Shown here one piece after another: positions 29,467 through 51,700 of a stretch of 64,000 nt of DNA. Numbering within the stretch: the stretch's first letter is position 1; each line of letters begins with the position of its first letter. A program made the translations under genes and the position numbers. Location: assembly GCF_003334815.1 (NCBI RefSeq), contig NZ_QOWO01000002.1; one strand, given 5' to 3'. Below the pieces are notes generated by a model. The model saw only the letters and a program-made list of their open reading frames with translations, was not told the origin of the DNA and did no database searches. The DNA comes from Escherichia coli. GTDB taxonomy: Bacteria > Pseudomonadota > Gammaproteobacteria > Enterobacterales > Enterobacteriaceae.

Positions 29467-30366
29467 TTACGCAGAGAAAAAGGCGATGAGGATCGGCACT
29501 AACAGGCTAAGAATAAAACCGTGAACAATTGCCGCCGGGACCATATCCAGCCCGCCAGTACGTTGAAGAACGGGCAGGGTGAAATCCATTGATGTGGCAC
29601 CGCATAAGCCCAGTGCAGTAGAGCGGCTGCGGCGAATCAGCCCAGGGATCAACATAATAGCAATCAGTTCACGGGCCAGATCATTAAAAAACGCCGCGCT
29701 CCCGATTACCGGACCAAAAGATTCGGTCAATAAAATACCGGAAAGAGAATACCAGCCGAAACCGGAGGCCATTGCCAGCGCGGTATTGATGGGGAGATCA
29801 AGAATAAAGGCGTTAATTAAACCACCAATTAATGAACTGACAACCACCACCACGGCGACAATCATTCCCCGGCGATTAAGGACAATCTGCTTTAAGGTCA
29901 TGCCATTATTGCGCAACTGAATACCAACGAGGAAAAGTAGCAAAATTAACGTGTATTCACTGGCTTCGGTCGCGTGTTGTAAGAAAGCCAGTCCACTTAG
30001 ACCAATGGCAAAACCAATCACTACTACGCCGCACAGTTTTAGCGACTCCAGCGCCATCGCAATACGCGACGGGAGTTTTTCTTGCTGATGGTGGTTGCGC
30101 CACGGCAGGCCTCGCTCCAGCCACATCAGGGCGGCAATATTACACAGTAAAATAACGGTAATACTGACGGCAGAATAATGCAGAATCGCCAACAGGTTAC
30201 TGGCGAGGTTATCGAGAAACGCCAGACTGATACCCATAAAAAAGAGAATAAGGTAAACCATCCAGCTTAATAGCTGATTAATAACTTTTAACGCAGCTTG
30301 TTGGCGAAGCGGAATGAGGTAACCCACAATCAGGGGAACCAGAATGATTAACAGCCCAGAAAACAT
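29467..30366 (-). CDS. lysO: Lysine exporter LysO (YbjE)
   Basis: 299-aa membrane ORF from ATG 30366 (MFSGLLIILVPLIVGYL...); ORF-track start 30414 is an extension. Confidence 0.9.
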   Translation of the reverse strand: MFSGLLIILVPLIVGYLIPLRQQAALKVINQLLSWMVYLILFFMGISLAFLDNLASNLLAILHYSAVSITVILLCNIAALMWLERGLPWRNHHQQEKLPSRIAMALESLKLCGVVVIGFAIGLSGLAFLQHATEASEYTLILLLFLVGIQLRNNGMTLKQIVLNRRGMIVAVVVVVSSLIGGLINAFILDLPINTALAMASGFGWYSLSGILLTESFGPVIGSAAFFNDLARELIAIMLIPGLIRRSRSTALGLCGATSMDFTLPVLQRTGGLDMVPAAIVHGFILSLLVPILIAFFSA

Positions 30367-30539
30367 GAAAACCCAGTCCTTGCAAAGATGAAGTCGAAAT
30401 GCGCGATGACACACTACTGAAAGCGGAAGGACGAGTAAAGTTGCAATTAAAAGGAAATGTTATGCATAAGGAGCAGTAGAGTATTCGTTTTCATTTAAAG
30501 ATATTCTTGCGCTTTAATTACAAACTGCACCGATGTTGG

Positions 30540-30760
30540 TGGCGTCAAAATCGCCGAGGCGTTCCCTGAAGGCCGGGGCAGCCCACATGGATGTGGGCTG
30601 AGGGCGCGTTTTACAGGGATGTTACCTCGCGCCCGACCCGGTAGCCGTAAGGGATAAGTCGAGGGCACCGCGCAGCGGCGATTTTGTTCGCCAGAGCCCG
30701 GGGGTGCAGGGGGCGGCGGCGATTGGCCGCCCCCTGCGCGCTCCTTGCGCCAGTGGCAAT
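30540..30760. other. GC-rich hairpin-dense element in lysO-aqpZ intergenic region (possible structured leader or boxC-like repeat)
   Basis: Perfect 12-bp inverted repeat GCAGGGGGCGGC/GCCGCCCCCTGC (30706-30737), palindrome CAGCCCACAT/ATGTGGGCTG (30579-30600), stem GGGCGCG/CGCGCCC (30602-30634); sharply higher GC than flanks. Confidence 0.4.
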
Positions 30761-30820
30761 ATGTTGCTTAGCTCATGAAAGGAGCGCAACAAGATGATGA
30801 ATCAACATATAACAACATCT

Positions 30821-30850
30821 TAAAAAAAGGCCTGACATTACGCCAGGCCT
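30821..30850 (-). terminator. Intrinsic terminator of aqpZ
   Basis: On minus strand hairpin AGGCCTGGCG...CAGGCCT followed by TTTTTTTA. Confidence 0.65.
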
Positions 30851-30860
30851 TCTGCGTTAA

Positions 30861-31556
30861 TTAATCACGCTTTTCCAGCAGGGTCCGGTAAATCAGACCA
30901 CCGATAATGCCGCCGACAATTGGCACCACCCAGAAGAACCACAGTTGTTCTAATGCCCAGCCGCCCTGGAAGATAGCAACCGCGGTGCTGCGCGCCGGGT
31001 TAACAGAAGTGTTAGTCACCGGAATACTAATTAAGTGAATCAGGGTTAAGGCCAGACCAATAGCGATCGGCGCAAAACCTGCCGGCGCGAATTTGTCGGT
31101 TGCGCCGTGGATCACCAACAGGAAACCTGCACTCAATACCAGTTCAACTACCAGCGCGGAAAGCATGGAATAACCGCCTGGTGAATGCTCGCCATAACCG
31201 TTAGAAGCAAAACCGCTGGCTGCCGCGTCAAAACCCGTTTTACCACTGGCAATTAAATACAGCAGCGCCGCTGCAACAATACCGCCGACAACCTGGGCAA
31301 TTACGTAGCCAACGACTTCTTTTGCCGGAAAACGTCCGCCAGCCCATAAACCAATAGTGACCGCCGGGTTAAAATGACCACCAGAAATATGACCAACAGC
31401 AAAGGCCATCGTCAGAACGGTCAGACCGAACGCCAACGCCACGCCGGCAAAACCAATGCCTAATTCCGGGAAGCCTGCGGCCAGTACAGCACTACCACAG
31501 CCACCAAAAACAAGCCAGAAAGTACCAAAACATTCAGCTGCTAATTTTCTGAACAT
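30861..31556 (-). CDS. aqpZ: Aquaporin Z
   Basis: 231-aa ORF from ATG 31556 ([19 protein letters not shown]...); two NPA motifs ([14 protein letters not shown]). Confidence 0.95.
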
Positions 31557-31981
31557 ATCCACCTCAATTAAAAATTGACCCTGTGAAAAATATGGTCGTT
31601 TTATAGGGTCGTCGTAAAAAAGTGACGACGGAAATAATGCGCGGCTATTTTAAAAACGAAGGCGAGTCATTCACCAGATAAATAAATCCAGTAAATTTGA
31701 TTTAGGGCAACAGCGGGTTGCCCCATATAGTCATTTGTCTGATTGACAGTGTAGTGCACGCAAAAGATTTAATCCTTTAGGCGTAATAAAAAATAATTTA
31801 TCATGCTAATTATTTGATTTTGTTGTTTTTGCAGACTTATCAGCAAGAGGGAGTATAACGCGATTATTCGCTCATTTTTCAGACATTTGCCATGCTTAAA
31901 TGTGATGTCATCACGTATTAGCAAGGCCTTTCCCGTTATACTGCCAGCGTAAAGGATAAGTCACATATTTCTGGAGGGGAT

Positions 31982-33640
31982 ATGATTCTTGAGCGCGTTG
32001 AAATTGTGGGTTTTCGCGGTATCAACCGTTTGTCGTTGATGCTGGAACAAAACAACGTCCTGATTGGGGAAAACGCGTGGGGTAAATCCAGCTTGCTGGA
32101 CGCCTTAACTCTGCTGCTATCGCCAGAATCAGATCTCTACCATTTTGAGCGCGACGATTTCTGGTTCCCGCCGGGAGATATCAACGGGCGAGAACATCAT
32201 CTGCATATTATTTTGACCTTCCGCGAATCGCTGCCAGGCCGACATCGGGTTCGCCGTTATCGGCCGCTGGAAGCGTGCTGGACGCCATGCACCGATGGCT
32301 ATCACCGTATTTTTTATCGTCTGGAAGGGGAGAGTGCGGAAGACGGCAGCGTGATGACACTGCGCAGTTTTCTCGATAAAGACGGACATCCGATTGATGT
32401 CGAGGATATTAACGATCAGGCACGCCATCTGGTGCGTTTAATGCCGGTGCTGCGCTTGCGTGATGCCCGTTTTATGCGCCGTATTCGTAACGGCACGGTG
32501 CCAAATGTCCCTAATGTGGAAGTCACCGCGCGCCAGCTCGATTTCCTCGCCCGTGAGTTATCCTCACATCCGCAAAATCTCTCTGATGGGCAGATTCGTC
32601 AGGGACTTTCCGCAATGGTACAGCTGCTTGAGCATTATTTCTCTGAGCAGGGGGCCGGACAGGCGCGATATCGTTTAATGCGGCGGCGAGCCAGCAATGA
32701 GCAACGAAGCTGGCGCTATCTGGATATCATCAACCGGATGATTGACCGACCTGGTGGGCGCTCGTATCGGGTTATTTTGCTCGGCCTATTTGCTACTTTG
32801 TTGCAGGCAAAAGGCACATTGCGACTGGATAAAGACGCCCGTCCATTGTTGCTGATCGAAGATCCAGAAACCCGTTTACACCCCATTATGCTTTCAGTTG
32901 CCTGGCATCTGTTGAATCTTCTGCCATTGCAGCGCATTGCCACCACCAACTCGGGTGAGTTGCTTTCGTTAACGCCGGTAGAGCATGTTTGCCGACTGGT
33001 ACGTGAGTCCTCGCGCGTTGCCGCCTGGCGTCTGGGGCCGAGTGGCTTGAGTACCGAAGATAGCCGACGCATATCCTTTCACATTCGTTTTAACCGTCCG
33101 TCATCGCTGTTTGCACGCTGCTGGTTGCTGGTGGAAGGGGAAACGGAAACCTGGGTTATCAATGAACTGGCGCGTCAGTGCGGACATCATTTTGATGCCG
33201 AAGGGATCAAGGTCATTGAGTTTGCCCAGTCCGGGCTAAAGCCACTGGTTAAATTTGCCCGCCGAATGGGGATTGAATGGCATGTACTGGTCGATGGCGA
33301 TGAAGCAGGGAAGAAATATGCCGCTACGGTACGCAGCCTGTTGAATAACGATCGGGAAGCCGAACGAGAACATTTAACGGCGTTACCGGCGCTGGATATG
33401 GAACATTTTATGTATCGCCAGGGATTTTCCGATGTGTTCCACCGCATGGCGCAAATCCCGGAAAATGTACCGATGAATCTACGCAAAATTATCTCGAAAG
33501 CGATCCATCGCTCTTCCAAACCCGATCTTGCCATTGAAGTGGCAATGGAGGCAGGACGTCGTGGTGTGGACTCCGTACCGACGCTGCTGAAAAAAATGTT
33601 CTCACGCGTGCTGTGGCTGGCGCGCGGTCGCGCGGATTAA
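31982..33640 (+). CDS. ybjD: OLD-family ATP-dependent endonuclease YbjD (N-terminal ABC-like ATPase + C-terminal TOPRIM)
   Basis: 552-aa ORF; Walker A GENAWGKSS, Walker B LLLIEDPE, TOPRIM-like LVEGETE and HVLVDGDEAG motifs. Confidence 0.9.
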   Translation: MILERVEIVGFRGINRLSLMLEQNNVLIGENAWGKSSLLDALTLLLSPESDLYHFERDDFWFPPGDINGREHHLHIILTFRESLPGRHRVRRYRPLEACWTPCTDGYHRIFYRLEGESAEDGSVMTLRSFLDKDGHPIDVEDINDQARHLVRLMPVLRLRDARFMRRIRNGTVPNVPNVEVTARQLDFLARELSSHPQNLSDGQIRQGLSAMVQLLEHYFSEQGAGQARYRLMRRRASNEQRSWRYLDIINRMIDRPGGRSYRVILLGLFATLLQAKGTLRLDKDARPLLLIEDPETRLHPIMLSVAWHLLNLLPLQRIATTNSGELLSLTPVEHVCRLVRESSRVAAWRLGPSGLSTEDSRRISFHIRFNRPSSLFARCWLLVEGETETWVINELARQCGHHFDAEGIKVIEFAQSGLKPLVKFARRMGIEWHVLVDGDEAGKKYAATVRSLLNNDREAEREHLTALPALDMEHFMYRQGFSDVFHRMAQIPENVPMNLRKIISKAIHRSSKPDLAIEVAMEAGRRGVDSVPTLLKKMFSRVLWLARGRAD

Positions 33641-34629
33641 CCGCGAAACATCGTGGCCATTTGTGGCTGAATAGCGTCGAGCATCTCATAGCGCCGACGG
33701 TATTCAGCCCGTTTTTTACTGGCGATTTCGGCAATCTCTTTTCGTGCTATCTGTGCTGGAAGGCGGTAATGGCGTTCAGCATCACATACGCCGCCAACCG
33801 ATTCCCAGAAAGCGTTGTAATCAGCGTGGATCTTGCCTTCTTTATCGCGATAACGCAGGCTGCGGTAAATATGCGTTTCATTGCTGACGGCAATAATCTG
33901 CTCTACCTGCAAACGTTGGGCAAACAGACAGGCCGCTTCCATCACGAGGCGTTTGGGAAATAGCCCGTGGCAGGCTTTCGTCGCATTCTGGATTTCCTGA
34001 TGTGGAATTTCCCATTTTGCGCCTTGCAGTCCGCCAATAAACATCGTTCTTTTCCCCTGATATTCACACAGGGTAAACGTGATCTCTGCCAGAGGAATAC
34101 CTTCGCTGTTGCGGAACAGGATTGTGCTGTCACCTTCTTTATCCATTGAGATCATCATGGTCAGCTCAAGCGTGAACTGCTCGCCGTTTTTGCCTTCCAG
34201 CTTCGCCAGTTGCAGCCCGGGGGTATTCAAATATAAGCTGAATTCTTCCGCCGACATACATTCGCGGAGTAACGCATAATGGTAACGTAACGCCTCCAGC
34301 AATTGCTTACGGCTAAGATTCGCCGCAAGGTAAGGGCGATGCAGACGCACAGGCAGTCGCGGCTGGCGCGTTAACAATACATTGAGATTAGGCCAGTGGG
34401 AAAGTTCGTTCATCCACTCAACGCTTAAACGCGGCATAATCAACGAGCGCAGCAAAAATTTCTGGCGAAAACTACGGCGATGCCAGAATTTACCCGGCCG
34501 ACACTGTCCACGTGCCAGACTAAGAAAAAGTGACAGGCTGCTGAGAGATTCAGATGGCGTAAAGGTCCGTTCAGTTAGCTGCGACATATTCATGAAATCA
34601 ATGGTTATACATGGCGTCGATTTCACCAT
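33637..34629 (-). CDS. ybjX: DUF535/VirK-family protein YbjX
   Basis: 330-aa ORF from ATG 34629; convergent with ybjD, stop codons overlap by 4 nt. Confidence 0.85.
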   Translation of the reverse strand: MVKSTPCITIDFMNMSQLTERTFTPSESLSSLSLFLSLARGQCRPGKFWHRRSFRQKFLLRSLIMPRLSVEWMNELSHWPNLNVLLTRQPRLPVRLHRPYLAANLSRKQLLEALRYHYALLRECMSAEEFSLYLNTPGLQLAKLEGKNGEQFTLELTMMISMDKEGDSTILFRNSEGIPLAEITFTLCEYQGKRTMFIGGLQGAKWEIPHQEIQNATKACHGLFPKRLVMEAACLFAQRLQVEQIIAVSNETHIYRSLRYRDKEGKIHADYNAFWESVGGVCDAERHYRLPAQIARKEIAEIASKKRAEYRRRYEMLDAIQPQMATMFRG

Positions 34630-34743
34630 TGCGTATCTTAACCAAACATCAATAGTGTGATTACTAACGTAAATTTTAGGGTTTTGTTGATATTTCGTTG
34701 AAGTTAATGACCCGGATTGGCATATGGAGTATTCAGAAAATTT

Positions 34744-35859
34744 ATGAAAAAGCGGAAAACCGTGAAGAAGCGTTACGTTATTGCGCTGGTGATAGTCATC
34801 GCCGGACTGATTACGTTATGGAGAATTCTTAACGCACCCGTGCCGACTTATCAGACGCTGATTGTGCGCCCCGGTGATTTACAGCAAAGCGTGCTGGCGA
34901 CCGGAAAGCTGGACGCGCTGCGTAAGGTTGATGTGGGCGCGCAGGTCAGCGGTCAGTTGAAAACTCTGTCGGTGGCGATTGGCGATAAAGTAAAAAAAGA
35001 CCAGCTTTTAGGGGTTATTGATCCTGAACAGGCTGAAAACCAGATTAAGGAGGTCGAAGCAACGCTGATGGAGCTACGTGCGCAGCGGCAGCAGGCGGAA
35101 GCGGAGCTGAAACTGGCGCGGGTGACGTATTCCCGTCAGCAACGTCTGGCACAAACGAAGGCTGTTTCACAGCAGGATCTCGACACCGCCGCGACGGAGA
35201 TGGCTGTGAAACAGGCGCAAATTGGCACCATTGACGCGCAAATCAAGCGCAATCAGGCTTCTCTCGATACGGCTAAAACCAATCTCGATTACACTCGCAT
35301 CGTTGCCCCGATGGCCGGGGAAGTCACGCAAATCACCACTCTGCAAGGCCAGACGGTGATTGCCGCACAACAAGCACCGAACATTCTGACGCTGGCAGAT
35401 ATGAGCACCATGCTGGTAAAAGCGCAGGTTTCTGAAGCGGATGTAATCCACCTGAAGCCGGGGCAAAAAGCCTGGTTTACGGTGCTTGGCGATCCACTGA
35501 CGCGCTACGAGGGGCAAATCAAGGATGTACTACCGACGCCGGAAAAGGTTAACGACGCTATTTTCTATTACGCCCGTTTTGAAGTCCCCAACCCCAATGG
35601 TTTGCTGCGGCTGGATATGACTGCGCAAGTGCATATTCAGCTCACCGATGTGAAAAATGTGCTGACGATCCCTCTGTCGGCGTTAGGCGATCCGGTTGGC
35701 GATAATCGTTATAAAGTCAAATTGTTGCGTAATGGTGAAACACGCGAGCGTGAAGTGACGATTGGCGCACGTAACGATACCGATGTTGAGATTGTCAAAG
35801 GGCTTGAAGCGGGCGATGAAGTGGTGATTGGTGAGGCCAAACCAGGAGCTGCACAATGA
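34744..35859 (+). CDS. macA: Macrolide efflux periplasmic adaptor (MFP) MacA
   Basis: 371-aa ORF from ATG 34744 ([21 protein letters not shown]...); coiled-coil and lipoyl-like MFP domains. Confidence 0.95.
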
Positions 35860-48732: not shown

Positions 48733-51700
48733 TTGAGCCAGGAATACACTGAAGACAAAGAAGTCACATTGACAAAGTTAAGTAGCGGCCGCCGCCTTCT
48801 GGAGGCGTTGCTGATCCTTATTGTCCTGTTTGCCGTCTGGTTGATGGCTGCCTTACTAAGCTTTAACCCTTCGGACCCCAGCTGGTCGCAAACGGCCTGG
48901 CATGAACCTATCCATAATTTAGGTGGGATGCCCGGTGCGTGGTTGGCAGATACGCTGTTCTTTATTTTTGGCGTGATGGCTTACACCATTCCCGTCATTA
49001 TTGTCGGCGGTTGTTGGTTTGCCTGGCGTCATCAGTCCAGCGACGAATACATTGATTATTTTGCCGTTTCGCTACGCATCATTGGCGTTTTGGCGCTCAT
49101 CCTTACCTCCTGTGGTCTGGCGGCAATCAACGCTGACGATATCTGGTATTTTGCCTCCGGTGGCGTCATTGGCAGCTTACTAAGCACTACGCTACAACCA
49201 CTGCTACACAGTAGCGGGGGAACTATTGCGCTGCTCTGCGTTTGGGCAGCGGGCCTGACGTTGTTCACCGGTTGGTCATGGGTGACCATTGCTGAAAAAC
49301 TCGGCGGCTGGATTTTAAACATTCTCACCTTCGCCAGTAATCGTACCCGTCGCGATGATACCTGGGTCGATGAAGATGAGTATGAAGACGACGAAGAGTA
49401 TGAAGATGAAAATCACGGCAAACAGCATGAATCACGCCGTGCCCGTATTCTTCGCGGCGCGCTAGCGCGTCGTAAACGGTTGGCGGAAAAATTCATTAAT
49501 CCGATGGGGCGGCAAACAGACGCTGCGTTGTTCTCCGGTAAGCGGATGGATGATGACGAAGAGATTACCTACACTGCACGCGGTGTGGCTGCCGACCCGG
49601 ACGACGTCCTATTTTCGGGCAATCGTGCAACGCAGCCAGAATATGACGAATACGATCCATTATTAAACGGTGCGCCAATTACCGAACCTGTCGCTGTAGC
49701 AGCTGCTGCTACCACGGCGACACAAAGCTGGGCTGCGCCGGTTGAACCTGTGACTCAGACGCCGCCTGTTGCCTCTGTTGATGTTCCACCTGCGCAACCT
49801 ACAGTAGCCTGGCAGCCTGTACCGGGTCCACAAACGGGAGAGCCGGTTATTGCTCCTGCACCGGAAGGTTACCCACAGCAGTCACAATATGCGCAGCCTG
49901 CAGTGCAATATAATGAGCCGCTGCAACAACCAGTACAGCCGCAGCAGCCGTATTATGCACCTGCAGCTGAACAACCTGCGCAACAGCCGTATTATGCCCC
50001 TGCGCCAGAACAACCGGTGGCAGGTAACGCCTGGCAAGCCGAAGAGCAGCAATCCACTTTTGCTCCACAGTCTACATACCAGACTGAGCAAACTTATCAG
50101 CAGCCAGCCGCTCAGGAGCCGTTGTACCAACAGCCGCAACCCGTTGAACAGCAGCCTGTTGTGGAGCCTGAACCCGTTGTAGAAGAGACAAAACCCGCGC
50201 GTCCGCCGCTTTACTACTTTGAAGAAGTTGAAGAGAAGCGAGCCCGTGAACGTGAACAACTTGCGGCCTGGTATCAACCGATTCCAGAACCGGTTAAAGA
50301 ACCAGAACCGATCAAATCTTCGCTGAAAGCACCTTCTGTTGCAGCAGTACCTCCAGTAGAAGCCGCTGCCGCTGTTTCCCCGCTGGCATCTGGCGTGAAA
50401 AAAGCGACACTGGCGACGGGGGCTGCCGCAACCGTTGCCGCGCCAGTCTTCAGTCTGGCAAATAGCGGTGGACCGCGTCCTCAGGTCAAAGAGGGGATTG
50501 GTCCGCAGTTGCCACGACCGAAACGTATCCGCGTGCCAACTCGTCGTGAACTGGCGTCTTACGGTATTAAGCTGCCCTCACAGCGTGCGGCGGAAGAAAA
50601 AGCCCGTGAAGCCCAGCGCAATCAGTACGATTCTGGCGATCAGTACAACGATGATGAAATCGATGCGATGCAGCAGGATGAACTGGCACGTCAGTTCGCC
50701 CAGACACAGCAGCAACGCTATGGCGAACAGTATCAACATGATGTGCCCGTAAACGCAGAAGATGCAGATGCTGCGGCAGAGGCTGAACTGGCTCGTCAGT
50801 TTGCGCAAACTCAACAACAACGTTATTCCGGCGAACAACCGGCTGGGGCGAATCCGTTCTCGCTGGATGATTTTGAATTTTCGCCAATGAAAGCGTTGCT
50901 GGATGATGGTCCACACGAACCGTTGTTTACGCCAATTGTTGAACCTGTACAGCAGCCGCAACAACCGGTTGCACCGCAGCAGCAATATCAGCAGCCGCAA
51001 CAACCAGTTCCGCCGCAGCCGCAGTATCAGCAGCCACAACAGCCGGTTGCGCCGCAGCCACAATATCAGCAGCCGCAACAACCGGTTGCGCCACAGCAGC
51101 AATATCAGCAGCCGCAACAACCGGTTGCGCCGCAGCAGCAGTATCAGCAGCCACAACAGCCAGTTGCGCCACAACCGCAGGATACCCTGCTTCATCCGCT
51201 GTTGATGCGTAATGGCGACAGCCGTCCGTTGCATAAACCGACGACGCCGCTGCCTTCTCTGGATTTGCTGACACCGCCGCCGAGCGAAGTGGAGCCGGTA
51301 GATACCTTTGCGCTTGAACAAATGGCTCGCCTGGTGGAAGCGCGTCTGGCTGATTTCCGTATTAAAGCCGATGTCGTCAATTACTCTCCGGGGCCGGTTA
51401 TCACTCGCTTTGAATTGAACCTGGCACCGGGCGTAAAAGCGGCGCGCATTTCTAACTTGTCACGGGACCTTGCCCGTTCACTTTCGACGGTGGCGGTGCG
51501 TGTCGTTGAAGTTATTCCTGGCAAACCCTATGTAGGTCTGGAGTTACCGAATAAAAAACGACAAACCGTTTATCTGCGCGAAGTTTTGGATAACGCCAAA
51601 TTCCGCGATAATCCGTCGCCATTAACCGTGGTGCTGGGTAAAGATATCGCCGGTGAGCCGGTGGTTGCCGATCTGGCGAAAATGCCGCACTTGTTGGTTG

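Follow-up and report, generated by a model that had tools for sequence, protein, structure and literature searches.

ybjD of Escherichia coli encodes a stand-alone OLD-family ATPase/Toprim protein and is a syntenic core gene of the Enterobacterales

The ybjD gene of Escherichia coli encodes a stand-alone ATPase/Toprim nuclease of the OLD family, and it belongs to the core genome of the Enterobacterales, where it is inherited vertically and kept under strong purifying selection. These properties, together with a weak promoter that the gene probably has of its own, favor a native role in low-level DNA surveillance or maintenance over one in accessory immunity, and we put the probability of this reading at about three in four. 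The nuclease and ATPase roles are assigned by analogy with the OLD proteins of Thermus and Burkholderia and with GajA. The identification itself is already known: YbjD was the seed query for OLD homologues in Schiltz et al. 2019 (PMC6755086), the gene was partly characterized and named as a Class 1 OLD, oldB (product OldB), in a May 2026 microPublication by Atahualpa et al. (PMC13261556), and RefSeq annotates it as "ATP-dependent endonuclease". What is new here are comparative-genomic and structural observations that extend beyond these two papers.

The window, i.e. the whole 64 kb stretch of DNA that was analyzed, is a K-12-like core region extending from mdfA to ycaD, with the genes around ybjD in the same order as in K-12. 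The ybjD coding sequence (positions 31982–33640, plus strand; 552 codons and a TAA stop) is supported by the list of open reading frames, Pfam, PADLOC and the RefSeq annotation, and contains all of the motifs quoted in an initial annotation of the sequence. It starts with ATG, preceded by a Shine-Dalgarno sequence, GGAGG, at 31973–31977, has a native GC content, and matches the RefSeq ybjD of E. coli strain 720632 at 100% identity; published ybjD primers (PMC13261556) match both ends of the gene in the window. The colinear RefSeq record annotates no further defense-type gene, and the initial description of ybjD as the sole defense-like gene in the window thus holds by annotation; PADLOC was applied to ybjD and three neighbors, with the remainder judged by annotation rather than by HMM. 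Neither a helicase nor a reverse transcriptase is annotated in the 64 kb. The immediate neighbors are aqpZ and ybjX, and a GajB helicase is absent next to ybjD in all 82 Enterobacterales loci, which bears out the earlier statement that there is no adjoining helicase partner.

The aqpZ-ybjD intergenic region (31557–31981), previously described as an AT-rich stretch of ~420 bp, measures 425 nt and has a GC content of 37.4%, compared with 51.6% for the window; published strains use it as a neutral site for integration. It contains no Rfam families, and a search of 30300–35000 gave nothing beyond a single sub-threshold TwoAYGGAY match. Cross-genus alignment reveals a sole conserved block upstream of ybjD, the hexamer TATACT (31937–31942, plus strand), 39 nt upstream of the ATG, which is a candidate −10 element of a promoter belonging to ybjD. 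TATA[AC]T is present 28–59 nt upstream of ybjD in 73 of 82 Enterobacterales loci, where shuffled sequences would give 1.65. There is no good −35 element, and a scan with the sigma-70 consensus calls no promoter upstream of ybjD, TATACT included.

The N-terminal region of YbjD (aa 1–375; 31982–33106) corresponds to Pfam DUF2813 and is an ABC-type ATPase. The Walker A motif or P-loop, GENAWGKSS (aa 29–37; 32066–32092), includes K35, a position occupied by Lys in 108 and Arg in 10 members of a 122-sequence family alignment. In the AF2 model the ATPase is interrupted at aa ~177–277 (32510–32812) by a helical insertion, the counterpart of the OLD dimerization domain, with helices at residues 177–195, 202–220, 242–255 and 260–277 and low-confidence loops at 163–176 and 223–242; by analogy with Thermus OLD and GajA we infer a role in dimerization. 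Walker B (LLLIEDPE, aa 289–296) and a D-loop-like histidine lie within LLLIEDPETRLHP (32846–32884), with E293 shared by 109 and H300 by 120 of the 122 family sequences; the Glu-to-His spacing of 7 is the same as for E276 and H283 of Thermus OLD. The H-loop position, TTNS (32942–32953), aligns with 'STHSPELL' of GajA and carries Asn323 in place of the His of GajA and canonical ABC ATPases; the column counts in the family alignment are N78, H19, Q13 and Y9. Both of the relatives linked to GajB (L101 and P0264) have the His, and the idea this raised was rejected because other His-type representatives (P0161, P0213 and P0217) are stand-alone genes.

The Toprim domain (aa 376–472; 33107–33397; PF20469, E=7.8e-16) contains the motifs LVEGETE (aa 383–389) and VDGDEAG (aa 437–443), from which the presumed ligands of metal A (E385, D438 and D440) and metal B (E389 and D472, with E474) are assigned by analogy with the Thermus and Burkholderia OLDs. 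In family alignments of 62 to 122 members E385, E389, D440 and E474 never vary, D438 and D472 are shared by at least 96% of sequences, and the catalytic residues stay unchanged across YbjD orthologues of 28–90% identity. The Walker A, Walker B and two Toprim-like acidic motifs reported initially are thus all present, and loss of the catalytic Toprim residues, which had been named as grounds for withdrawing the assignment, is not seen. The protein ends in a C-terminal helical bundle (aa 473–552; 33398–33637), with four helices at aa 473–547 following the Toprim core in the AF2 model. The bundle carries an invariant S-K513-P motif, a Class 2-type feature; K513 is found in 121 of 122 family sequences, and its position and invariance suggest that it is the equivalent of Burkholderia K562.

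Database searches agree with these assignments. Pfam returns DUF2813 (3.5e-160) and OLD-like_TOPRIM, as well as AAA_15, AAA_29 and SMC_N; the best PADLOC match is GajA model PDLC00094 (6.8e-80), accompanied by many further GajA models and by Old (1.9e-24); and the YbjD family profile finds Thermus OLD (7.9e-22) and GajA (2e-20) among PDB sequences. The membership proposed at the outset is therefore upheld, in that OLD, AAA_15 and Toprim HMMs all match, and so is the proposed likeness in architecture to P2 Old and GajA, since the AlphaFold model resembles GajA, Thermus OLD and the retron Eco8 OLD in structure comparisons. The head is also structurally similar to SMC, Rad50, RecF and RecN, and 164 residues of the C-terminal region superpose on the Class 2 Burkholderia structure 6nk8_B at 2.3 Å. 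YbjD thus has the Walker A/B ATPase, the Toprim acidic ligands and the fold that characterize OLD proteins.

Its class is less simply stated. Class 1 is defined by genomic context, and as a single gene with no conserved partner ybjD belongs there; its Toprim is not of the compact kind, free of C-terminal helices and with a catalytic Arg, that Thermus OLD has. YbjD is therefore Class 1 by context with a C-terminal region of the Class 2 (GajA/Burkholderia) type, which refines the initial description as a class-1-like single-gene OLD. The Thermus scotoductus OLD (Class 1, PDB 6P74) is likewise a stand-alone gene whose product has an ABC ATPase with a dimerization insertion followed by Toprim, the same Walker B Glu to D-loop His spacing, and equivalent acidic residues for metals A and B, but at the position corresponding to its Arg (R487, +7) YbjD has an invariant Gly, G481, in addition to K513 in the helical bundle. 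GajA (Class 2) has the same domain order, and a GajA model gives the best profile match to YbjD, but Gabija GajA is part of a defense island with an adjacent co-oriented GajB, a UvrD/PcrA-like helicase, whereas ybjD is a core chromosomal gene with no such neighbor. P2 Old, with about 18% identity to YbjD, also combines the OLD ATPase and Toprim in a single gene, but it comes from a prophage, is lethal to recBC cells and cleaves tRNA, unlike chromosomal, core YbjD with its Toprim-independent phenotypes (PMC13261556). The reverse transcriptase and msr/msd RNA that adjoin the Class 3 OLD of retron Eco8 are missing near ybjD. In Class 4 PARIS systems the ATPase (AriA) and the Toprim/DUF4435 protein (AriB) are encoded by separate genes; in YbjD both parts are on one polypeptide, the AriA model covers just aa 1–51, and there is no AriB-like neighbor.

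The distribution of ybjD is that of a core gene. Of 5426 complete E. coli genomes, 5425 carry it with an intact reading frame, and some 45 Enterobacterales genera retain the order hcp-lysO-[aqpZ]-ybjD-[ybjX]-macAB. When E. coli is compared with Salmonella, ybjD has a dN/dS of 0.040, similar to that of hcr, lysO and macB, and orthologues with 40–45% identity occur in Vibrionales and Aeromonadales. Carriage by phages or plasmids was considered and rejected: there is no real match in INPHARED, only two of 2.9 million IMG/VR viral contigs match, and the apparent 'plasmid' matches are mislabelled chromosomes or chromids. One of the two viral contigs is E. coli ybjD itself and the other (L101) encodes a true GajA of a real Gabija system beside an Hma gene, 31% identical to YbjD over its full length. 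PHROG 4747 strongly matches YbjD. Phages and plasmids are essentially free of the gene. In both L101 and P0264 a GajB gene lies immediately downstream, and in 10 of the 12 genomic contexts inspected for distant members of the YbjD family, the gene stands by itself amid ordinary genes. A neighbor-joining tree of 122 family members is star-like and does not separate the two directions of descent between the YbjD clade and Gabija.

Downstream, ybjD converges with ybjX (VirK/DUF535; 33637–34593, minus strand; Pfam DUF535 E=1.4e-102), and the two coding sequences overlap tail-to-tail by 4 nt (33637–33640), as noted initially, with their stop codons, both TAA, having 2 nt in common. We considered whether the two genes form a functional unit coupled through this overlap as an excludon. 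Of the 61 loci having an adjacent ybjX, 51 show the identical 4-nt overlap, RNA-seq lists the pair as a convergent excludon (PMC12288877), and an intergenic terminator is impossible, the sole terminator-like hairpins being inside the opposite gene. However, an adjacent convergent ybjX is missing from 21 of 82 loci with enough downstream sequence, 19 of them without any copy in the locus, with Klebsiella, Raoultella, Proteus and Pectobacterium among the genera concerned; ybjD also persists without it in Vibrio, Salinivibrio and Aeromonas, and in Yersinia the two genes are separated by 136 nt. Moreover, YbjX evolves about four times faster (dN/dS 0.15, versus 0.04 for YbjD) and matches no PADLOC defense model. 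Because of its repeated loss and fast evolution, ybjX was rejected as a partner, and a coupled unit is improbable; both ybjX and aqpZ are dispensable, variably present neighbors of ybjD.

In the published experiments ybjD is expressed and induction of YbjD reduces the number of Bas18 and Bas20 plaques and the size of T7-like phage plaques, effects that are weak and seen at a non-toxic inducer level (PMC13261556). These phenotypes need the ATPase domain, and the K35A mutant is more toxic, which is reminiscent of ATP-inhibited GajA; neither the anti-phage effect nor the toxicity requires Toprim, so the nuclease may be irrelevant to both. The effect is independent of RecBC, YbjD, unlike P2 Old, does not kill a recBC(ts) strain, and a ybjD knockout leaves susceptibility unchanged across the phages tested (PMC13261556). 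In the searchable literature there is no YbjD biochemistry and no DNA-repair, DNA-damage or growth phenotype on record, and nothing further was found under DUF2813 or b0876.

From these elements a working model can be assembled. YbjD would oligomerize through its helical insertion, with ATP bound at K35 keeping it restrained, as the greater toxicity of K35A suggests. Because Asn323 stands in for the H-loop His, ATP is probably hydrolyzed slowly. The Toprim domain would cleave or nick DNA by two-metal catalysis, with E385, D438 and D440 predicted to hold metal A, E389, D472 and E474 metal B, and K513 contributing, by analogy with characterized OLDs. Expressed from its own putative weak promoter, YbjD would act in constitutive low-level DNA surveillance or maintenance, and phage restriction upon overexpression would be one read-out of this activity.

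Several other accounts of its function can be given. YbjD could be a genuine single-gene anti-phage system, selected to sense infection and then stop the phage or kill the cell, as the restriction at non-toxic induction suggests; its nearest characterized relatives (GajA, P2 Old, Vc OLD and retron Eco8) are all defense proteins, and the GajA of a real Gabija system is among its homologues. We consider this unlikely, given that the phenotype requires plasmid induction, is independent of an invariant nuclease site, and has no counterpart in the knockout. Defense genes are usually patchy and located in islands, whereas ybjD is strictly core, syntenic and vertically inherited, with no copies on phages or plasmids, although core status may be compatible with an immune role. 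That YbjD is instead a housekeeping enzyme of DNA metabolism (repair, recombination, replication restart or chromosome maintenance), its phage effects being an overexpression side effect of a DNA-binding ATPase head, has a chance a little short of even. Its conservation resembles that of neighboring housekeeping genes, its nuclease site is invariant yet dispensable for the overexpression phenotype, its head is of the SMC/Rad50/RecF/RecN type, most of the distant relatives examined sit among ordinary genes, and a role in the cell cycle is reported for an archaeal OLD, Cran1 (cited in PMC13261556). Set against this, ybjD is non-essential and lacks a recorded damage or growth phenotype, no LexA-type or other informative regulatory site is seen upstream by eye, and the experimentally characterized bacterial OLDs are all defensive.

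It is very improbable that ybjD is the inert remnant of a Gabija system whose GajB helicase has been lost. The best PADLOC matches are GajA models, the C-terminal region is Class 2-type, and two relatives are paired with GajB, but the selection data contradict this account, with a dN/dS of 0.040, an intact frame in all but one of the E. coli genomes and invariant catalytic residues in distant orthologues; furthermore, the gene is expressed and most of the family is stand-alone. The initial annotation had allowed that a housekeeping role was equally possible, and this caveat is strengthened by the core status, synteny and strong purifying selection, features that point to a housekeeping or domesticated role. 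We tentatively propose, at rather less than even odds, that the YbjD clade represents a 'domesticated' offshoot of a lineage that also yielded a Gabija GajA subfamily, and that it became fixed as a core gene in Enterobacterales, Vibrionales and Aeromonadales, with the invariant Toprim serving endogenous DNA maintenance or surveillance and not the Toprim-independent phage effect of overexpression.

If the domesticated-branch reading is true, stand-alone OLDs would be far commoner than the 0.45% of genomes reported via defense-finding tools, because core copies such as ybjD are not counted. The comparative picture also sharpens the question of what stand-alone OLDs are for. In its behavior ybjD stands out as a fixed core gene, unlike a mobile phage-defense gene, and there is a mismatch between an invariant nuclease site in a strictly core gene and a phage phenotype that needs neither the nuclease nor the native copy, which argues that YbjD has a real function still to be discovered, and E. 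coli is genetically easy to work with in looking for it.

The ybjD gene is a 552-codon open reading frame on the forward strand (31982–33640) with an ATG start and a GGAGG Shine-Dalgarno sequence (31973–31977, +), and its product contains all four motifs that the initial annotation had attributed to it: GENAWGKSS (residues 29–37), LLLIEDPE (289–296), LVEGETE (383–389) and VDGDEAG (437–443). The convergent ybjX coding sequence ends at 33637, so that 4 nt are common to both coding sequences as claimed (the TAA stops have 2 nt in common), and its proposed VirK/DUF535 membership is borne out by Pfam (DUF535, E=1.4e-102). The stretch separating ybjD from the start of aqpZ (31557–31981) is AT-rich as described (37.4% GC versus 51.6% for the window), with a length of 425 nt rather than ~420 bp; corrections of this kind are cosmetic only and the observation is confirmed. 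A 2-kb segment carrying ybjD matches E. coli strain 720632 with 100% identity, and in that strain "ybjD: ATP-dependent endonuclease" adjoins "ybjX: VirK/YbjX family protein". Positions 2–56271 are colinear with this strain and are followed by K-12-like dmsABC, ycaC and ycaD, and the window thus represents the core mdfA–ycaD region of the E. coli chromosome.

Strain 720632 (examined as locus L096, 1–7730) has a P2-like prophage remnant with tail genes, ogr and hok downstream of serS, where the window runs directly into dmsABC from 56272; this strain-variable insertion point lies just outside the region of the ybjD finding. A short tandem repeat array is present inside the ftsK linker-coding region (50950–51180), as seen from self-offset BLAST matches of 87–94% identity at ~39-nt shifts. 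Between lysO and aqpZ, a GC-rich segment (30500–30800; 60–64% GC) matches the Rfam family TwoAYGGAY RNA below threshold (30.6 bits, gathering score 43; E=0.067) and looks more like REP-type extragenic repeats.

The proposed OLD-family identity (ATPase plus TOPRIM) is upheld by profile and structure comparisons. Pfam matches include DUF2813 at residues 1–375 (3.5e-160), OLD-like_TOPRIM at 376–440 (7.8e-16), and AAA_15, AAA_29 and SMC_N in the P-loop region; PADLOC identifies GajA models, of which PDLC00094 scores best (6.8e-80), as well as the Old model (1.9e-24). NCBIfam has no equivalog for YbjD, whose similarity there to MADS3, RecF, PtuA and Eco8 is confined to the N-terminal P-loop. A 62-sequence family profile matches the solved structures of Thermus scotoductus OLD (7.9e-22) and GajA (2e-20), and an AlphaFold2 model built on the same alignment is confident (pLDDT 87, pTM 0.85), with Foldseek matches to GajA (1e-18), Thermus OLD (1e-16) and retron Eco8 OLD (1e-14). 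Because of these Pfam, PADLOC, family-profile, AlphaFold2 and Foldseek results, we regard OLD membership as secure, with very little room for doubt.

The feature is real and the OLD reading correct, yet already known. A survey of OLD homologues by Schiltz et al. 2019 (PMC6755086) was seeded with YbjD, the E. coli K12 OLD homolog eco:b0876, and a whole paper on ybjD (microPublication, May 2026; PMC13261556) assigns it to Class 1 by genomic context, finds it to be expressed and proposes the name oldB. In that study the Keio ybjD knockout has unchanged phage sensitivity, and arabinose-induced YbjD lowers plaquing of Bas18 and Bas20 and gives smaller plaques of the T7-like phages Bas64–68. This phage phenotype is unaltered by Toprim deletion or acidic-residue mutation, is lost upon ATPase-domain deletion, and is retained by K35A with higher toxicity; recBC(ts) cells are not killed by YbjD, unlike by P2 Old. 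The ybjD-ybjX pair is likewise already listed as a convergent excludon by ExcludonFinder (PMC12288877).

OLD classes are assigned from genomic context, which makes YbjD Class 1, but its modelled C-terminal region is structurally of the Class 2 type, with four helices (473–547) predicted after the Toprim core. Thermus OLD is without a C-terminal helical bundle and uses R487, whereas YbjD has an invariant G481 at that position and an invariant lysine, K513, within the bundle. Among defence relatives, a Gabija subfamily comes closest. A viral contig (L101; IMG/VR UViG_3300021604_000070, 135–7131) encodes a compact defence cluster in which HmaC (PADLOC E=0) lies 5' of GajA, and GajB (PDLC00114, 8e-266) directly 3' with a 4-nt overlap; no defence-system relative found is closer to YbjD than this GajA, which is 31% identical to it and matches PDLC00094 over its whole length (3.9e-228). 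The relative P0264 is 57% identical to the L101 GajA and also has a GajB fragment downstream. Ten other non-enterobacterial contexts (Vibrio, Salinivibrio, P0144, P0155, P0211, P0174, P0146, P0161, P0213 and P0217) are all stand-alone among ordinary genes, and the DUF2813 clade is thus mostly stand-alone with a Gabija-linked twig; the direction between these states is not polarised by the star-like neighbour-joining tree of 122 family members. Giant metagenomic relatives of 1,000–1,867 aa (P0150, P0162, P0163, P0165, P0175, P0196, L098:392–4360 and others) have a several-hundred-residue insertion after the P-loop, perhaps a coiled coil, that splits the DUF2813 ATPase, with the OLD-like Toprim kept; the L098 gene is two genes away from a DNA polymerase I gene.

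Residue conservation was assessed in alignments of 62 and 122 members, 28–90% identical to YbjD. The catalytic TOPRIM residues are conserved: all 62 sequences of the smaller set share E385, G386, E387, E389, D440, E474 and P514, and in the larger set E385 and D440 remain invariant, with E389, E474 and K513 each in 121 of 122, D438 in 120 and D472 in 117. By analogy with Thermus OLD (metal A: E377, D431, D433; metal B: D381, S478, E480) and Burkholderia OLD (E400, D455, D457; E404, T506, E508; K562), these form a putative two-metal site and catalytic lysine. The ATPase motifs are somewhat less strict among the 122 sequences, with K in 108 and R in 10 at the K35 position, E293 in 109 and the D-loop-like H300 in 120. 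The H-loop His of GajA ("STHSPELL") aligns with an Asn in YbjD (family: Asn 78/122, His 19, Gln 13, Tyr 9).

The ybjD segment is present in single copy at ≥95% nucleotide identity in 5425 of 5426 complete E. coli genomes. Protein identity drops along the host phylogeny, from ~90% in Salmonella/Citrobacter to 86% in Klebsiella, 64% in Yersinia/Serratia, 56% in Proteus, 45% in Aeromonas and 40–43% in Vibrio/Photobacterium/Salinivibrio. A one-genome-per-species scan recovers at least 501 relatives, the best 80 of which span ~45 Enterobacterales genera; in those loci the order hcp-lysO-(aqpZ)-ybjD-(ybjX)-macA-macB is kept, with ybjD constant and aqpZ and ybjX variable. Between E. coli and Salmonella (89.9% amino-acid identity) its dN/dS, from an in-house Nei-Gojobori script, is 0.040, similar to hcr (0.054), lysO (0.044) and macB (0.049), and its GC content and GC3 are native. 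INPHARED contains no real match, and the 2.9 million IMG/VR contigs yield two loci with relatives, one being the E. coli gene itself. Thus ybjD is not mobile, and this profile marks it as a housekeeping rather than an accessory defence gene. We infer that the published DefenseFinder figure for Class 1 OLDs, 0.45% of genomes, evidently leaves out the YbjD clade.

Matches labelled as plasmids bear the wrong label and come from chromosomes, chromids or fragments of chromosomes. Four E. coli 'plasmid' records (NZ_CP134387.1, NZ_CP148399.1, NZ_CP148584.1 and NZ_CP148327.1), 42–88 kb long and with ybjD-ybjX at 99.5–99.6% protein identity, are probably mis-assigned chromosomal fragments; the complete-genome search likewise gives 6 places on E. 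coli 'plasmids', and several multi-megabase PLSDB 'plasmids' are clearly chromosomes. YbjD also matches phrog_4747, a PHROG family of unknown function (4.6e-116), although deposited phage genomes contain no relative. One possible origin of this family is predicted prophages whose boundaries take in chromosomal genes similar to ybjD.

The same 4-nt tail-to-tail overlap occurs in 51 of 61 loci with an adjacent ybjX, and a partnership of the two genes was considered. The adjacent convergent copy is missing in 21 of the 82 Enterobacterales loci with enough downstream sequence, 19 of which have no ybjX copy in the locus, and ybjX has no PADLOC match. Loci without it include Klebsiella, Raoultella, Proteus and Pectobacterium, and likewise Vibrio, Salinivibrio and Aeromonas. 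The partner reading is essentially excluded. The ybjX gene (33637–34593, -) is fast-evolving (dN/dS 0.151 and 57% amino-acid identity between E. coli and Salmonella), YbjX identity across genera is 44–76% (loci L016–L095), and it is repeatedly lost. Given the overlap, the two transcripts must collide, and terminator-like hairpins are found only inside the opposite gene; transcriptional interference between them is plausible to some extent, though it cannot be essential. In cathelicidin-treated uropathogenic E. coli, ybjD is up-regulated along with arnF, a signal of either sense transcription or read-through from ybjX.

On the other side, aqpZ (30861–31556) is a variable neighbour: Salmonella, Yersinia, some Kosakonia/Enterobacter and others (L008, L002, L042, L050 and L061–L063) have none between lysO and ybjD, so only genomes with aqpZ have the AT-rich 425-nt spacer; the Salmonella lysO-ybjD spacer is 201 nt. 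Upstream conservation is limited to the Shine-Dalgarno sequence and TATACT (31937–31942). Of 82 loci, 73 have TATA[AC]T 28–59 nt before the ATG versus 1.65 expected from shuffles, a count that reflects conservation rather than independent evidence as the loci are related. No -35 is recognisable, which suggests a candidate weak constitutive promoter of ybjD's own.

We favor, with a probability of about three in four, YbjD being an OLD enzyme with a core-gene surveillance or maintenance role. It would be an oligomeric ABC-ATPase/Toprim enzyme that ATP binding may restrain, K35A being the more toxic form (PMC13261556), with hydrolysis probably slow because the H-loop residue is Asn, and its Toprim-plus-helical C-terminal region would cut nucleic acid by two-metal catalysis. 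The conservation described here argues for a selected function in chromosomal DNA surveillance or DNA maintenance, and the weak phage restriction published for over-expression may stem from the ATPase head binding DNA. A primarily housekeeping role, which the initial annotation had deemed equally possible from the conserved core context, fits the near-universal presence, kept synteny and low dN/dS, and we hold it tentatively, at somewhat under even odds. A primarily defensive role would accommodate the reduced plaquing and the Gabija relative; the knockout is unchanged in phage sensitivity and the gene is immobile, and we consider this role somewhat less likely than the housekeeping one. An inert relic, at a dN/dS of 0.040, is essentially excluded.

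Only one contrast offers a lead of some worth: the gene is core and its nuclease site invariant, whereas neither the nuclease nor the native copy is required for the published phenotype. As judged from the alignments, the part of YbjD dispensable for the published over-expression phenotype is that under the tightest constraint, and in our reading a native function of YbjD, so far unobserved, would therefore use the nuclease.
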